From: an uncultured Clostridia bacterium
GTDB lineage: Bacteria; Bacillota; Clostridia; TANB77; CAG-508
Direction of reading: 5' to 3'
Length of the DNA stretch: 32,000 nt
Assembly (NCBI GenBank): GCA_934121885.1
Contig: CAKOVH010000004.1
Span: 63,064 to 95,063, forward strand
Made by a program: the position numbers and the translations under genes. Below, one piece after another: positions 3,181 to 12,131 of the stretch. The first letter of the stretch is position 1. The number at the start of each line of letters is the position of its first letter. The notes beneath the pieces were generated by a model. That model worked only from the letters and a program-made list of their open reading frames with translations, made no database searches and was not told the DNA's origin.

Positions 3181-3927
3181 ATGTTAAATATATTAATAGC
3201 CGATAGTAATATAGATTACGCAATAAACTTAATGTCGCATATTAATTCATTATCAGATAATATAAGAGTAATCAATATTACTTTGGACGGAAAGGAAACA
3301 TTAAACTTTTTAAATGATGTAAATAATTCTGTAGATATTGTGTTGTTAGATTACAATACACCTATGTATAATGCAATGGAAATATTAGATAAAGTTTCTG
3401 AAAAACAACAAAATAAATATCAAAAATCTTTTATTATTACTTCTGATAATCCAAAAATTATAGAAAAGCTAAACTCTACTAACAATAACTTAATATATAC
3501 TTGTCTTTCTAGAGAATTAGATGTGTCTGAAATAGTTTCTTATATCAACGATGTAATTGTTTGTAAAAGACTTCAAGATAATGTTAATTCATTAAGACCA
3601 TCTATTCAAAGTGAACTACTTTACCTTGGATATGATTTCTCTCATAAAGGTACTCAATATTTATTAGACATTATTAACATGATATATTTGCGTGGAGAAT
3701 CTTTATTAGAAAATTTAAATAAACTTGTTTACCCAGTTATTGCTAGAAAATATCATCAATCTTGCAATAATATAAAGTGTAATGTTATCCGTTCAACTGA
3801 ATATATGTATTATAATTGTGACGAAAAGAAACTTTTAGAATATTTTTCATTTTGTGAACCCGCAAAACCAAATATGAAAACTGTTATTAATGCAGTCATC
3901 ACAAAAATTAATACTGCATCTGCATAA
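3181..3927 (+). CDS. Divergent Spo0A-like response regulator (receiver-like domain plus Spo0A C-terminal-type DNA-binding domain)
   Basis: N-terminus NILIADSN...DIVLLDYNTP is receiver-like. The C-terminus (SHKGTQYLLDIINMIY...LVYPVIARKY...AKPNMKTVINAVITKI) is colinear with Spo0A_C (HIKGYxYLREAI...LYPxIAKKY...KPTNSEFIA). GGAGGAG at 3165-3171 favours the ATG at 3181 over 3163. Confidence 0.7.
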   Translation: MLNILIADSNIDYAINLMSHINSLSDNIRVINITLDGKETLNFLNDVNNSVDIVLLDYNTPMYNAMEILDKVSEKQQNKYQKSFIITSDNPKIIEKLNSTNNNLIYTCLSRELDVSEIVSYINDVIVCKRLQDNVNSLRPSIQSELLYLGYDFSHKGTQYLLDIINMIYLRGESLLENLNKLVYPVIARKYHQSCNNIKCNVIRSTEYMYYNCDEKKLLEYFSFCEPAKPNMKTVINAVITKINTASA

Positions 3928-3955
3928 GTAATTGAATTAATTTACATACAAAAAA

Positions 3956-3988
3956 GGCTGTAGATTTAAATATCTACAGTCTTTTTTC
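3956..3988 (+). terminator. Rho-independent terminator after the Spo0A-like gene
   Basis: CTGTAGAT (3958-3965) pairs with ATCTACAG (3972-3979), followed by a T-run. An A-run upstream makes it potentially bidirectional. Confidence 0.7.
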
Positions 3989-4368
3989 TTAGAAATATTT
4001 GCTATTAGAATATTTCTAAAAGGAATGGAAATATATAATAGTTAAAAAATATAAATGATTTTTGTCGAATTTCATTATTACATCTGTAACTATTGTAGTT
4101 ATAAGTCGGTACCATATATTAAATTTATGATTTTATACTTAAGATTTTTCATTCCTTGATGTGATTTTCACATAACATTATTATAACATCTTTTTCTACA
4201 AATTTCTTTTATTTCGTTGTAACTTATTGTAACTGCTATTTTTCTTCAATTAATCTTCTCTTTTATCATACAAATATAACTTATATTCTTTTATTAAAAG
4301 TATTTCATTATATATAATTGAATTAAAAATATATAAAACTCACAAATTCTATAATTATAAACAATATT

Positions 4369-7754: not shown

Positions 7755-8510
7755 TTATATTAACCATCCGCCATTAATAGAAATTACTTGTCCTGTTGTA
7801 TATTCATCTTTTATAAGCCATTCTACGCACCTTGCAATATCTACTTTTTTTCCTATTTTATTTAATGGAATATCTTCTATAATATCTTTAATTTCTTTAT
7901 CAGTATATGTTTTGTTCATATCTGTATCTATTATACCTGGGGCTATGCTGTTTACTCTTATATTTGAAGGACCTACTTCCTTTGCTAAAGCTTTTGTCAT
8001 TCCATCTATACCAGCCTTTGCCACACTATAATGAACCTCACATGATGAGCCTGTAACTCCCCATATTGATGATATATTAATGATTAAACCTTCTTTTCTG
8101 CTAATCATATTTTTTATAGCCTCTTGGGTACAATAAAAGGCTGATGTTAAATTAGTTTGTATCATATTATTCCAGTCTTCATCTGTTAAATCTGTAAAAA
8201 GCTTTGCTTGAGATATTCCGGCATTATTAATTAATACATCTATCTTTCCAAATTTATTTATTGCAAAATCTATAATTTTTTTTACTTCTTCCCTTTTAGA
8301 TACATCTGCTTTAAATATTTCTATATTAATATTATTTTTTTGCAAATCTTCTTTTATCTTTTTAGCTTCATTTTCTGATTTATTATAATTTAAAATTACT
8401 CTATAGTTATCCCTAGCAAGTTTTTTTACTATTTCTGCTCCTATTCCTCTTGATCCTCCAGTTACTACTATAACTTTATTTACTATATTTTTTTCTGCTT
8501 CTTCTTCCAT
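7755..8510 (-). CDS. Short-chain dehydrogenase/reductase, FabG-like (3-oxoacyl-ACP reductase family)
   Basis: TGGSRGIG cofactor motif, NNAG, and catalytic S...YSVAKAG (YxxxK). Confidence 0.85.
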   Translation of the reverse strand: MEEEAEKNIVNKVIVVTGGSRGIGAEIVKKLARDNYRVILNYNKSENEAKKIKEDLQKNNINIEIFKADVSKREEVKKIIDFAINKFGKIDVLINNAGISQAKLFTDLTDEDWNNMIQTNLTSAFYCTQEAIKNMISRKEGLIINISSIWGVTGSSCEVHYSVAKAGIDGMTKALAKEVGPSNIRVNSIAPGIIDTDMNKTYTDKEIKDIIEDIPLNKIGKKVDIARCVEWLIKDEYTTGQVISINGGWLI

Positions 8511-8865
8511 TATTAATATTCGCTCCTTTATATGTACTTGTTAATGAATGACAATTTGGACATAATAAAATTAAATTTTCTTCTTTATTATTTTTATAAT
8601 TTCCATCTATATGTTCTATTTCTAATGGAATATTATTAGTATAATTATTTCTTTCACCCCATCCACATCTTGCACATTTATTATTATATTTTTTAAATAG
8701 ATATGTTTTTATATATAAAGAAATTTGATATTCTCCTCTAAGTCCATCTTTTTTATCCATTTTCCATTCTTCTATATATTTTTTATATTCATACTCTTTC
8801 TGACATGTATTATTGCAGAACTTATTTCTTTTATTAATTTGTTCATTACAATTAAGACACCTCAA
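8476..8865 (-). CDS. Free-standing HNH endonuclease
   Basis: Zn-ribbon-like CLNC...C..C at the N-terminus, then the HNH core CARCGW...EIEHIDGNYKNNKEENLILLCPNCH. It overlaps the SDR gene by 35 nt and sits 70 nt downstream of the intron-containing tRNA. Confidence 0.8.
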   Translation of the reverse strand: MRCLNCNEQINKRNKFCNNTCQKEYEYKKYIEEWKMDKKDGLRGEYQISLYIKTYLFKKYNNKCARCGWGERNNYTNNIPLEIEHIDGNYKNNKEENLILLCPNCHSLTSTYKGANINNGRRSRKKYSK

Positions 8866-8935
8866 ATTTTCACCTTCTTCTTCATAAAAAACAAAGAACT
8901 AAGCAAGTTATACAACAAACCTAGTTCTAAGTAAT

Positions 8936-9245
8936 TGGAGCCACTTGTCCGAATCGAACGGACGACCTACTGATTCATACTACTATAATTTTCATTACCA
9001 CAAATGTGTTTGTAGTCTGGACTTTCTCTTTGCCTTAGCTTATGCCTTAGACACACCGTATAAAGTCTCTACACTCAGAAATTTCTTTCTTAGCTCGGGA
9101 TTAACATATATTATATACTTAGTCTTCCCCGAATTAGCGGTGTCCACTTTATATGTTTCCACATAAAGGTGCAAAATAGTTCAAAATAAGTTAAAAACTT
9201 ATCTATTCCACAAGTCAGTTGCTCTACCAGCTGAGCTAAAGTGGC
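8936..9245 (-). tRNA. tRNA-Thr(UGU) gene, CCA-encoded, interrupted by a 234-nt intron between positions 36 and 37
   Basis: 5' exon (9245-9210): GCCACTT TA GCTC AGCTGGTA GAGC A ACTGA CTTGT. 3' exon (8975-8936): AA TCAGT AGGTC GTCCG TTCGATT CGGAC AAGTGGC T CCA. Joined they give a canonical 76-nt cloverleaf with anticodon loop CT-TGT-AA. Confidence 0.85.
8976..9209 (-). ncRNA. Group I (IC3-like) self-splicing intron candidate inside tRNA-Thr
   Basis: The 5' exon ends in U and the intron ends in G. Candidate pairings: P3 GACACC/GGUGU(G)UC, P4 UCGGG/CCCGA, P6 AGAAA-GAAA-UUUCU, P7 GACUUU/AAAGUC, P9 GUAAU-GAAA-AUUAU. The core strings GUGUAGAGACU...ACGG and GGCAAAGAGAAAGUCCAGACUA resemble, from memory, the cyanobacterial tRNA-Leu and Azoarcus tRNA-Ile introns. 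No ORF inside on the intron strand. Confidence 0.75.
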
Positions 9246-9255
9246 ATTATTCAAT

Positions 9256-9330
9256 TGGTGACCCCGACGGGAATCGAACCCATGTCTCCGCCGTGAAAGG
9301 GCGATGTCTTAACCGCTTGACCACGGGGCC
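9256..9330 (-). tRNA. tRNA-Glu(UUC)
   Basis: GGCCCCGTGGTCAAGCGGTTAAGACATCGCCCTTTCACGGCGGAGACATGGGTTCGATTCCCGTCGGGGTCACCA. Cloverleaf folds, anticodon loop CTTTCAC. Confidence 0.95.
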
Positions 9331-9370: not shown

Positions 9371-9446
9371 TGGTGAGCCATCGCGGACTCGAACCGCGGA
9401 CAACTTGATTAAAAGTCAAGTGCTCTACCACCTGAGCTAATGACCC
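9371..9446 (-). tRNA. tRNA-Lys(UUU)
   Basis: GGGTCATTAGCTCAGGTGGTAGAGCACTTGACTTTTAATCAAGTTGTCCGCGGTTCGAGTCCGCGATGGCTCACCA. Anticodon loop CTTTTAA. Confidence 0.95.
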
Positions 9447-9489: not shown

Positions 9490-9518
9490 ATTGTAAACTA
9501 TTTTATTGCTTTTGTCAA
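9490..9518 (-). promoter_or_regulatory. Strong sigma-A-type promoter for the tRNA Lys-Glu-Thr operon
   Basis: The minus strand reads TTGACA (9518-9513), 17-nt spacer, TACAAT (9495-9490). A 9-bp leader hairpin CTTGCGTTT/AAACGCAAG (9457-9485) follows. Confidence 0.6.
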
Positions 9519-10021: not shown

Positions 10022-11764
10022 ATTCATATTTTTTCTATAATTATTATTTCAGTTTTATTTATATTTTTTGGATATCGTATTTTTTCTCCCATTTTATTTT
10101 CTTCATCAATAATTATAACATATGGTATTCATCCTTTTGACATCTGTATAAAAAATCCAGAATTATGGCAAATAATTAAAATACTATTTATTTTTACTTA
10201 TATTTTTTCTTCCCTCATTTTATCTAATTTAATTTATAATTATTTATTTATCCCTTTTTTTAAAATATTAATTTTTATTTTTAATAAATTAAAATTATAT
10301 TTTTCAATATTTAAAAAATCTAAAAGTAATAAGTTTAAAAATAGTATTTTAAATAGTATTAATAATTTACCACAATTAAATTTATTTATTGGTAACACTG
10401 AAAATAATAAAAATGCAATTTATTTACCAGAAAAAAGTTTATATCAAAATATTTTAATTACTGGAACAATTGGAACTGGAAAAACAAGTAGTGCAATGTA
10501 TCCATTTACTGAACAATTAATCTCAAATAAAAAAAATTTGCCTATGCTTATTTTAGATGTAAAAGGTAATTATTATTTAAAGGTAAAAGAATTGTGTCAA
10601 AAATATAATAGAATAAATGATTTAATTGTATTAGAATTAAACGGTAATTTTCGTTATAATCCTTTGCACAAACCTAATTTAAAGGCATCTGTTCTTGCTA
10701 ATCGATTAAAGGATATACTTCTCTTATTTTCTCCAAATAATTCTGAATCTTATTGGATTGATAAATCAGAACAAGTTTTAACTGAGGCTATAAAATTATG
10801 TAGATTATATAATAATGGATATGTAACCTTTGAAGAAATTCATAAGTTAATTACTATTGAAAATTATTACAAAGAAAAAATTTTAATTTTAAGAGATTTA
10901 TTTAATAAAAACAATTTATCATATTCACAAGTATATGATTTATTTTCATCAATTACTTTTTTTGAAAAAGAATTTTTTTCTTTAGATTCACGCACCCTTT
11001 CAATTTTAAAATCTGAAATAACAAGAATAACAAATTGTTTTATATCAGATTACTCTGTTTTTCAAACCTTTTGTCCACCCAAAAAAGACTTAAATTTTTT
11101 AGGATTTAAAGATGCTTTAATATCTGGAAAAATTATTGTTTTAAATTTAAATATAGCAGAATACAAAAATTTATCAAAAATAATTGCAGCATATTTAAAA
11201 TTAGATTTTCAGACAGAAGTCATGAATCGATTATCAAACAATAATTTTGAAGATTTCTCCCCTGCAGTTTTTATTTCAGACGAATATAGTGAGTATTGCA
11301 CTATATCAGATAGCAATTTCTTTTCTCAAAGTAGAGAGGCAAAATGTATTAATATAATTGCAACACAAAGTTATACCTCTCTTCTAAATACATTAAATAA
11401 CAAATATGCTACTGAAGTAATTATTCAAAATTTAGTAAATAAATTGTGGTTTCGAACTGATGATATGTTTACTATAGAATCGGCACAAAAACAAATTGGC
11501 AAGGAAGATAAAGAAAAAATATCAAAAAATATATCTGAAAATGCTAAAGAAACAAAATATAGTTATTTATCAAATTCATTAAATTCTACAAATTCTAGTA
11601 TTTCAGAAAGTATTAATACTTATTTACAATACGATTATATTTACGATACTAAATTTTTTACTCAATTTTTAGAAAATTTTACATGTCTTGCATTTTTATC
11701 TGACGGACAAAAAATTATGAAACCAGAAAAAATAATTTTAAAACCATTTTTCAAAAAAAATTAA
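10022..11764 (+). CDS. Type IV coupling protein (VirD4/TraG-like ATPase) with N-terminal TM segments; start codon uncertain (no in-frame ATG/GTG/TTG before 10496)
   Basis: The frame is open from 10001. My translation upstream of the ORF-track start gives TM helices and the Walker A ILITGTIGTGKTSSAMYPF (about 10451-10507). Walker B-like VFISDEYSEY and IIATQS follow. AGGTGA (10009-10014) sits 7 nt before the in-frame ATT at 10022. Confidence 0.7.
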   Translation: MHIFSIIIISVLFIFFGYRIFSPILFSSSIIITYGIHPFDICIKNPELWQIIKILFIFTYIFSSLILSNLIYNYLFIPFFKILIFIFNKLKLYFSIFKKSKSNKFKNSILNSINNLPQLNLFIGNTENNKNAIYLPEKSLYQNILITGTIGTGKTSSAMYPFTEQLISNKKNLPMLILDVKGNYYLKVKELCQKYNRINDLIVLELNGNFRYNPLHKPNLKASVLANRLKDILLLFSPNNSESYWIDKSEQVLTEAIKLCRLYNNGYVTFEEIHKLITIENYYKEKILILRDLFNKNNLSYSQVYDLFSSITFFEKEFFSLDSRTLSILKSEITRITNCFISDYSVFQTFCPPKKDLNFLGFKDALISGKIIVLNLNIAEYKNLSKIIAAYLKLDFQTEVMNRLSNNNFEDFSPAVFISDEYSEYCTISDSNFFSQSREAKCINIIATQSYTSLLNTLNNKYATEVIIQNLVNKLWFRTDDMFTIESAQKQIGKEDKEKISKNISENAKETKYSYLSNSLNSTNSSISESINTYLQYDYIYDTKFFTQFLENFTCLAFLSDGQKIMKPEKIILKPFFKKN

Positions 11765-11774
11765 GGAGGAACTT

Positions 11775-12131
11775 ATGAAAATTTATAAAATTCGAAAAAA
11801 ATATTTTTTATTTTATTTTACTTTTATTTTATCATTTATTATTTTAATATTTTTTAATTCTAATGTTTTTGCAGGTTTATTTGATGGAACCCCTACTCTT
11901 ATTACAAAACTAACTGATGCATTCGGAACAATAAAATCTTGGCTATTTACACTCTCTACTCCTGCCGCAGCAGTGGCAGTTGGTGTTGGTGTATTTATGA
12001 AAAAATTTAGTTTTGGAGACGAAGAAAGAATACGTGTAGCTAAAAAATTAATACGTGGATCTTTATTTTCTTATGCTTTTATTCTAGCTCTTGATCTTAT
12101 TCTTTCTGCAATTCAATCACTACTTGCTTAA
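11775..12131 (+). CDS. VirB2/TrbC-like pilin-type small membrane protein
   Basis: AAGGAGG RBS. Signal peptide ending NVFA|G, then two hydrophobic helices (TPAAAVAVGVGVFM; LFSYAFILALDLILSAIQSLL). Size and topology match T4SS pilin-like proteins of Firmicutes and Mollicutes. The call rests on topology only. Confidence 0.5.
   Translation: MKIYKIRKKYFLFYFTFILSFIILIFFNSNVFAGLFDGTPTLITKLTDAFGTIKSWLFTLSTPAAAVAVGVGVFMKKFSFGDEERIRVAKKLIRGSLFSYAFILALDLILSAIQSLLA

Follow-up and report, generated by a model that had tools for sequence, protein, structure and literature searches.

The 32-kb stretch of contig CAKOVH010000004.1 analysed here (hereafter the window) very probably contains a functional tRNA-Thr(UGU) gene, the third in a tRNA-Lys, tRNA-Glu, tRNA-Thr operon, that is split by a group I intron of the IC3 type similar to the one in the tRNA-Ile gene of Azoarcus. 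This reading is carried by exons that join into a complete tRNA, by a ribozyme fold drawn from 31 aligned pre-tRNAs and by uninterrupted alleles of the same gene in relatives. A gene for an HNH endonuclease adjoins the split gene, and its association with the intron, which we infer from sequence comparisons, is the most interesting element of the locus.

A tRNA-Thr(UGU) gene split by a group I intron

The gene is made up of three parts.

9210–9245, minus strand: tRNA-Thr(UGU) 5' exon, nucleotides 1–36, ending in U36, the intron's U-1; reads GCCACUUUAGCUCAGCUGGUAGAGCAACUGACUUGU (sequence, ARAGORN)
8976–9209, minus strand: group I (IC3-like) intron, 234 nt, without an open reading frame (ORF), terminal guanosine (ωG) at 8976 (RF00028, covariation, syntenic intronless alleles)
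8936–8975, minus strand: tRNA-Thr(UGU) 3' exon, nucleotides 37–76, CCA encoded; reads AAUCAGUAGGUCGUCCGUUCGAUUCGGACAAGUGGCUCCA (sequence, ARAGORN)

When joined, the two exons (9245–9210 and 8975–8936) form a 76-nt cloverleaf that ARAGORN called tRNA-Thr(UGU), and the same program, run on the genomic sequence with introns allowed, reported tRNA-Thr(tgt) and placed a 234-nt intron at position 37. Both runs bear out the split gene that the original prediction had proposed from the letters of the window. The splice context is CUUGU/g...g/AA, the 5' exon ending in U and the insert in G, as had been claimed. Judging from this context, the splice points are fixed at U36/...G/A37, because only these give a canonical 7-nt anticodon loop together with the U-1/ωG rule; the insertion after nucleotide 36, likened in the original prediction to the sites of the Azoarcus tRNA-Ile and Agrobacterium tRNA-Arg introns, is thereby confirmed. 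Neither default ARAGORN nor the Rfam tRNA model called the split gene, and only tRNA-Lys and tRNA-Glu were found in the window.

A search of 501 nt with the Rfam model RF00028 (Intron_gpI), the check that had been suggested for the prediction, gave a significant match at 8998–9193 on the minus strand, which covers the full model (1–253) with 52.0 bits (E 1.9e-12) and lies above gathering. GC content is about 36% across the matched part. Over 178 aligned columns the intron shares 65% identity with the IC3 intron in tRNA-Ile of Azoarcus, and it is 71–75% identical to two other bacterial tRNA-intron seeds (Williams alignment); the putative IC3 assignment rests on this similarity and not on a subgroup-specific model. 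Two strings that had been quoted as resembling IC3 introns, GUGUAGAGACU and AAAGAGAAAGUCCAGACUA, are present in the sequence. A BLAST search of phage genomes with the region returned matches to the flanking tRNAs only, and the intron was never matched. The recurrence of the split gene in 28 or more further species genomes and on several metagenome contigs, with strong covariation, goes far beyond what chance would give. Together with the uninterrupted alleles described below, these data support the IC3-like group I nature claimed for the insert.

Secondary structure and covariation

Thirty-one pre-tRNAs, 30 of them distinct in sequence, were aligned (alignment A2), and the tRNA arms were drawn together with P1, P1a, P2–P5, P6/P6a, P7, P8, P9, P9a and P9b. 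In this alignment 97.9% of the cells are standard-paired, against 34–39% when the 3' partners are slid by 1–3 columns, and 35 of the 96 pairs show double-sided changes. On four of five measures, none of 500 shuffles came up to the alignment; on the fifth, the number of further standard pair types, the alignment did not exceed the shuffles (372/500). RNAalifold, used without a supplied structure, recovered the tRNA arms, P1 (with its U·G), P1a, P2, P3, P4, P5, P6a, P8, P9, P9a and P9b, with 33 compensatory pairs; the P3/P7 pseudoknot cannot be drawn by this program. The elements of the intron are positioned as follows.

9203–9212, minus strand: P1 5' strand, exon UGU (9212–9210) plus intron GGAAUAG (9209–9203), pairing with 9170–9179
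9170–9179, minus strand: P1 3' strand and internal guide CUAUUUUGCA, its G opposite U-1 (alignment, RNAalifold)
9186–9202, minus strand: P1a, apical hairpin AUAAGUU-UUU-AACUUAU in the P1 loop (covariation)
9147–9168, minus strand: P2 hairpin with GAAA tetraloop (6 of 9 pairs covary)
9095–9143, minus strand: P3 5' strand (9138–9143) and P4 (9127–9132 with 9095–9100), which encloses P5 (9103–9124) (alignment)
9073–9094, minus strand: P6/P6a hairpin with GAAA tetraloop (5 covarying pairs)
9019–9069, minus strand: P7, G(A)GACUU (9063–9069) with AAGUCC (9019–9024); P3 3' strand (9053–9058); P8 (9032–9052); J8/7 (9025–9031) (alignment)
8979–9016, minus strand: P9 enclosing P9a and P9b (GAAA tetraloop), followed by AUG with ωG at 8976 (covarying pairs in each of P9, P9a and P9b)

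The core helices named in the original prediction (P3, P4, P6, P7 and P9, with GAAA tetraloops) are all present in this covariation-supported fold, in which P4 and P7 are invariant; the tetraloops are L2, L6a and L9b. Three pairs covary in P3 and three in P8, and P5 exchanges A-U with G-C pairs. P7, presumed to be the guanosine-binding helix, is identical in 30/30 sequences and matches the Azoarcus G(A)GACUA/UAGUCC and other seeds, and ωG (8976) is invariant in all 31 aligned sequences. P5 carries an ACUAAG...UAUGU motif. This motif and the CCUAAG...UAUGG-like family consensus of P8 are presumably 11-nt tetraloop-receptor-like motifs; P8 of the window reads UCUAAG...UAAGG and differs from the consensus CCUAAG...UAUGG at two positions. 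The UAAGG variant of P8 is common to five species, and five species have a shortened P5 without the receptor-like motif.

The P1 helix first drawn for this intron did not hold. It had paired exon GACUUGU with intron AUAAGUU, giving a U-A pair at the splice site instead of the canonical U·G. AUAAGUU pairs with AACUUAU inside the intron, and five of the seven P1a pairs show compensatory changes, for example AUAAAAC/GUUUUAU in locus L003; the U-A caveat disappears because AUAAGUU belongs to this internal hairpin. In P1 as drawn here, U36·G at the 5' splice site is invariant in 30/30 distinct sequences and three pairs covary, the variants including GGAAUAG/CUAUUUU, GGGAUAG/CUAUCUU and AGGAUGA/UCAUCUU. 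The structural caveat is thus settled in favour of a canonical group I intron. We also tried by eye GUUUUU, GAUAAG and GUGGA as alternative guides, and moved the splice site; no such choice yields both the U·G and a canonical 7-nt anticodon loop.

From this structure the course of splicing can be proposed. The transcribed intron would fold into P1–P9, and in P1 exon U36 would form a U·G wobble with the G of the guide CUAUUUUGCA. Attack after U36 would come from an external guanosine bound at P7; ωG (8976) would then occupy the same P7 site, the freed 3'-OH of U36 would attack after ωG, and the exons would be ligated to the 76-nt tRNA. Because P10 comprises only about 2 bp, the exons would probably be held together by the anticodon stem of the tRNA, as is reportedly the case for the Anabaena tRNA-Leu intron. 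The sequences themselves show the fold, the nucleotides at the splice sites, conservation between species and uninterrupted alleles that equal the predicted product; catalysis by the tRNA-Thr intron is predicted.

Distribution, uninterrupted alleles and polymorphism

The scan of species genomes (one genome per GTDB species, IC3 core pattern) yielded at least 119 loci. At least 28 other species genomes carry a tRNA-Thr(UGU) gene with a 218–243-nt intron at the same site, and all 28 listed are metagenome-assembled genomes (MAGs) from gut or rumen that bear the label Clostridia or Clostridium sp., among them CAG:245, CAG:492, CAG:508 and UBA7001. With the Lys-Glu-Thr gene order, this agrees with the tRNA operon of a Firmicute that had been predicted. 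Metagenome contigs of the same or close strains (100%, 96.7% and 94% identical) also carry the intron.

Metagenome contigs were scanned with the joined exons as well, which gave at least 120 loci, many of them with an uninterrupted tRNA-Thr(UGU). In at least 11 contigs the uninterrupted gene is identical to the predicted spliced product of the window, and each of the 11 is followed by the same SDR (YmfI/FabG-like) gene, the single genomic context among the matches listed. When the window was compared by BLAST with intronless syntenic loci, exactly the 234 nt were missing. The exon stems covary in alignment A2 (at two acceptor-stem and three T-stem pairs), and therefore the tRNA is under selection. 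The uninterrupted alleles and the compensatory changes in the exons argue strongly against a pseudogene.

Intron-bearing and intronless alleles are interspersed on the tree of the downstream SDR protein. Two comparisons show the difference at close range. The flanks of L157 (CAG:508) are 97.4–98.5% identical to those of L323, L316 and L284, and a 237-nt intron is the sole difference. L183 (CAG:245) and L294 have flanks that are 98.4–98.9% identical, and L294 lacks both a 231-nt intron and a 392-nt cassette that holds the HNH gene; the 101 nt between intron and cassette are 100% identical. Intron presence thus varies within species, by gain or by precise loss.

The IC3 core pattern also matched introns in other tRNA genes. 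Those in tRNA-Tyr(GUA) (at least about 35 species), tRNA-Asn(GUU) and tRNA-Lys(CUU) come from similar gut Clostridia MAGs, those in tRNA-Leu(UAA) from Gammaproteobacteria, Bacteroidota and Bacilli MAGs, and some MAGs have two split tRNAs, such as CANQGW01 with Thr (L091) and Tyr (L145). The nearest listed relatives of the Thr intron are the Lys(CUU) intron, at 82% over 159 nt, and the Tyr introns, at about 80% over 163 nt, and this kinship across Thr, Lys and Tyr genes suggests spread between tRNA genes. The pattern was further found in 67 IMG/VR viral contigs (L007–L073), mostly as introns of about 202 nt in tRNA-Arg(UCU), in some cases in tRNA-Leu(UAA) and once in tRNA-Thr(UGU) at position 34/35 (L067). 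Viral contig L013 (pattern match at 3892–4086) scores 64.6 bits on RF00028 and has an abiF RNA match (3825–3861) immediately upstream of its split tRNA. According to a 2014 review, group I introns were not known from any phage tRNA gene. Two matches probably come from mis-binned contigs: L140, assigned to a Methanobacteriota archaeon and with no tRNA found close by, and L175, assigned to Klebsiella pneumoniae and carrying a tRNA-Leu intron with HNH.

An HNH endonuclease gene adjoins the split gene

One further gene downstream of tRNA-Thr has to be considered with the intron.

8476–8865, minus strand: free-standing HNH endonuclease gene, 129 aa, TTG start (Pfam HNH PF01844, 24.9 bits, cutoff 21.4)
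8886–8928, minus strand: terminator-like hairpin AGAACUAGG...CUUAGUUCU followed by a U-run (read from the sequence; not reported by the consensus scan)

The HNH gene lies 70 nt downstream of tRNA-Thr, beyond the terminator-like hairpin and outside the intron. Its product has an N-terminal Cys-rich Zn-ribbon and a CxxC...CxxC HNH domain with the H...N...H motif; a search of PDB sequences with this protein gave weak McrA-type matches only. HNH proteins are 65–77% identical across species whose SDR proteins are 54–69% identical, which suggests purifying selection.

We surveyed 1,600 nt downstream of the tRNA in the 25 species loci that have a Thr intron and enough sequence. A full-length HNH homolog lies 63–110 nt after the tRNA in 11 of them (one with an internal stop), and only a C-terminal remnant of 21–35 codons is left in another five. 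C-terminal remnants of 21–42 codons were seen in many genomes without the gene. At 71 syntenic loci among the matches listed, the full-length gene is present in 9/22 intron-bearing alleles and in 0/49 intronless ones (Fisher p = 7e-6). One contig, L283, has an intact HNH gene beside an intronless tRNA-Thr; it falls outside the 71 loci, its SDR gene being cut short, and p becomes 5e-5 when it is counted. In the CAG:245 pair (L183 versus L294), the 392-nt cassette is inserted exactly at the SDR start codon, where it takes the original ribosome-binding site and ATG of the SDR gene and supplies this gene with a new ribosome-binding site. This is the one same-species pair in which intron and HNH are both present or both absent; the other pair differs by the intron alone.

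The same endonuclease family was found inside an orthologous intron. Bacilli MAG L102 has, at the same insertion site, a 659-nt tRNA-Thr(UGU) intron whose loop L5 encodes a 65%-identical full-length homolog; the 3' end of this ORF overlaps P5', P4' and P6. A search with the L102 protein gave 3852 relatives, and genomic context was looked up for four: all four (138–150 aa) are inside 618–626-nt tRNA-Thr(UGU) introns in a Val-Thr-Tyr-Gln-Lys tRNA cluster. Related HNH domains (PLExxHIxGN...NLxLLCPNCHxLT) occur inside 680–740-nt tRNA-Leu(UAA) introns of other phyla. Where such introns measure 680–700 nt in Gammaproteobacteria (L082, L092, L115, L156, L164, L175), the HNH ORF is antisense to the intron; it is on the intron strand in the Bacilli and Bacteroidota loci L094, L114 and L080.

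These observations can be brought together in a proposed mechanism. The free-standing HNH enzyme would cut intronless and/or HNH-less alleles near the locus, and recombinational repair would co-convert intron and HNH cassette ("collaborative homing"). From the comparisons made here, we put at roughly even the chances that the HNH protein is the homing-endonuclease partner of the intron in free-standing form, still promoting co-conversion of intron and cassette. It is possible, though we say so tentatively, that bacterial chromosomes hold both states of one homing-endonuclease family at one insertion site, free-standing in gut Clostridia-type genomes and L5-embedded in another Firmicute lineage, and thus a natural example of collaborative homing.

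Operon and surroundings

The remaining elements of the operon lie upstream of the split gene.

9490–9518, minus strand: promoter-like site TTGACA-17-TACAAT, 5' of the tRNA-Lys/Glu/Thr operon (consensus scan, 11/12 matches; pattern match only)
9371–9446, minus strand: tRNA-Lys(UUU), operon gene 1 (ARAGORN; Rfam tRNA 66.5 bits)
9256–9330, minus strand: tRNA-Glu(UUC), operon gene 2 (ARAGORN; Rfam tRNA 64.4 bits)

The window is a low-GC (24.9%) piece of chromosome near the replication origin and holds dnaA, gyrB and gyrA. Genes resembling those for conjugation or type IV secretion are interleaved with gyrA, gyrB and dnaA at 10496–12131 (plus strand) and 18759–21848 (minus strand); they comprise a TraG/TrwB-like coupling protein, an ORF resembling a type IV secretion system pilin, and two ATPases, one ParA-like and one VirB4-like. 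The relatives L001, L193 and L201 have the TraG-like gene in synteny.

Comparison with known systems

Group I introns of bacterial tRNA genes are classically found in Leu(UAA), fMet, Ile(CAU) and Arg(CCU) genes. By applying ARAGORN and Rfam to about 80,000 genomes, Williams (bioRxiv 2020, doi 10.1101/2020.01.27.920355) raised the number of classes to 21, which include Thr.5Ug, Thr.3Ug, Thr.2Ug, Tyr.4Ug and Asn.4Ug. The preprint contains no splicing tests and says on endonucleases only that long introns may hold genes. By its sequence features the window intron is of class Thr.5Ug in this nomenclature, an already catalogued type: it shares the insertion in tRNA-Thr after the fifth anticodon-loop nucleotide (position 36), U-1 and ωG, and the same core architecture, and it is 71% identical to the seed Rba53.Thr.5Ug. 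The novelty that had been claimed for a tRNA-Thr group I intron was therefore overstated. The Thr.5Ug seed of the preprint is GC-rich, about 260 nt long and located in tRNA-Thr(GGU), whereas the window intron is AT-rich and located in tRNA-Thr(UGU) of gut Clostridia-type MAGs. With the Williams table by phylum left aside, no paper was found on a Clostridia tRNA-Thr(UGU) intron, its structure, its polymorphism or an HNH partner, and initial literature searches on tRNA-Thr group I introns gave organelle papers only.

One of the closest known introns is the tRNA-Ile(CAU) intron of Azoarcus sp. BH72 (Reinhold-Hurek & Shub 1992; Ile2.5Ug). The two introns share the site after nucleotide 36, a 3-bp exon part of P1, GAAA tetraloops on P2 and P9, CCUAAG...UAUGG-type motifs in P5/P8, the P7 sequence G(A)GACUx/xAGUCC and the absence of P5abc. 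They differ in host tRNA and phylum and in GC content, which is much lower in the present intron. The present intron is about 30 nt longer because of the additional P1a hairpin in the P1 loop and the P9a/P9b extension.

As to mobility, Hausner et al. (2014, PMC3984707) review collaborative homing in phage protein-coding genes, with the psbA intron and F-CphI (2009) and the case of Bonocora & Shub 2009 as examples. The present locus resembles these in its ORF-less intron, in an endonuclease gene adjoining the split gene and, for one of two same-species comparisons, in their joint presence or absence. The intron-embedded state of the same endonuclease family elsewhere is also the end state predicted by that model. 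Unlike the phage cases, it concerns a bacterial chromosomal tRNA gene and an HNH enzyme, and one contig has the HNH gene beside an intronless allele. The endonuclease I-SspI of the Synechocystis tRNA-fMet intron is said not to belong to the HNH family. In strain PCC 6803 this enzyme is encoded within the intron (Bonocora & Shub 2001), whereas the HNH gene of the window is free-standing.

Alternative explanations

Some observations weigh against a functional split gene. The RF00028 score is a mere 2 bits above the gathering score of 50 bits, and scans of the whole window missed the match at both gathering and E-value thresholds; we take this miss as an artefact of the Infernal speed filters and not as counter-evidence, because the local scan of 501 nt passes gathering. 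P10 has at most about 2 bp. Covariation is silent on P4 and P7, both of which are invariant and match the Azoarcus and seed sequences. ARAGORN found no other tRNA-Thr in the 32-kb window, and a second copy may exist elsewhere in the genome. The marginal score and such a second copy would fit a disrupted tRNA pseudogene with a decayed, non-splicing intron relic, tRNA-Thr(UGU) being supplied by another gene. We regard this as highly improbable, since positions of the ribozyme core either covary or stay unchanged across 30 distinct sequences, from hosts whose SDR proteins are only 52–95% identical, the exon stems stay paired through compensatory changes, ωG, U-1 and the G that pairs with it do not vary, and, among the matches listed, this locus is the only context of this tRNA sequence in intronless relatives. 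It is somewhat less improbable, yet still unlikely, that a genuine group I intron depends in vivo on a protein cofactor, be it a maturase or a chaperone, that comes from the host or is derived from HNH, as an AT-rich RNA with a short P10 may fold poorly alone. The low GC content (about 36% over the Rfam match), the two off-consensus positions in the P8 receptor-like motif of the window and the short P10 speak for such a need; against it, the intron is retained in many species that have no HNH gene, the three GAAA tetraloops and the receptor-like motifs are conserved, and the related IC3 tRNA introns of Azoarcus and Anabaena self-splice.

The reading of the HNH protein as a homing partner meets stronger competition. 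The intron may splice while the adjacent HNH gene is an independent selfish or domesticated cassette that has no role in mobility and is there by descent; intron presence or absence would then come from precise loss (through cDNA or allelic recombination) or from ordinary recombination between strains. We consider this a serious possibility, if a little short of an even one. Several findings favour it and count against a homing partnership. No HNH was found within 1,600 nt in 9 of the 25 surveyed intron loci, so that the intron is kept without an intact HNH gene. The difference between L157 and L323, L316 and L284 arose at loci with an HNH remnant only. L283, a low-coverage contig, speaks against the idea that the intron is strictly needed for self-protection from the HNH enzyme. 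Intron identity is moderately correlated with host SDR identity (rho 0.50), intron and HNH divergence both following host-gene divergence with rho about 0.5, and vertical descent with linked loss could explain much of the pattern. Close homologs of the window-type HNH are all in the same synteny, a context that is uninformative on mobility. What speaks against an independent cassette is that the same family occupies loop L5 of the orthologous intron of another lineage in 5/5 contexts examined, that at the 71 listed loci the full-length gene is confined to intron-bearing alleles whose clades are scattered over the SDR tree, and that the CAG:245 haplotypes gain or lose intron and HNH gene together.

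Significance

Default tRNA finders and a whole-contig Rfam scan miss this gene, the RF00028 match being lost to filters so that such loci go unannotated, and gut genomes therefore look devoid of tRNA-Thr(UGU); this apparent lack distorts MAG quality scores and codon-decoding inference. The introns form a compact (218–243 nt) AT-rich family of IC3-like ribozymes with many natural variants, of use in structure-function work and for permuted-intron circular-RNA tools based on tRNA introns. The intron and the HNH gene offer a tractable natural system for studying how introns and homing endonucleases join and separate, because intron presence is polymorphic within species, because the HNH gene occurs both intact and as decayed remnants, and because free-standing and embedded forms both exist. 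If the proposed partnership is true, it would provide a bacterial case of the transition by which mobile group I introns arise or come apart, a transition so far argued mainly from phage protein-coding genes.

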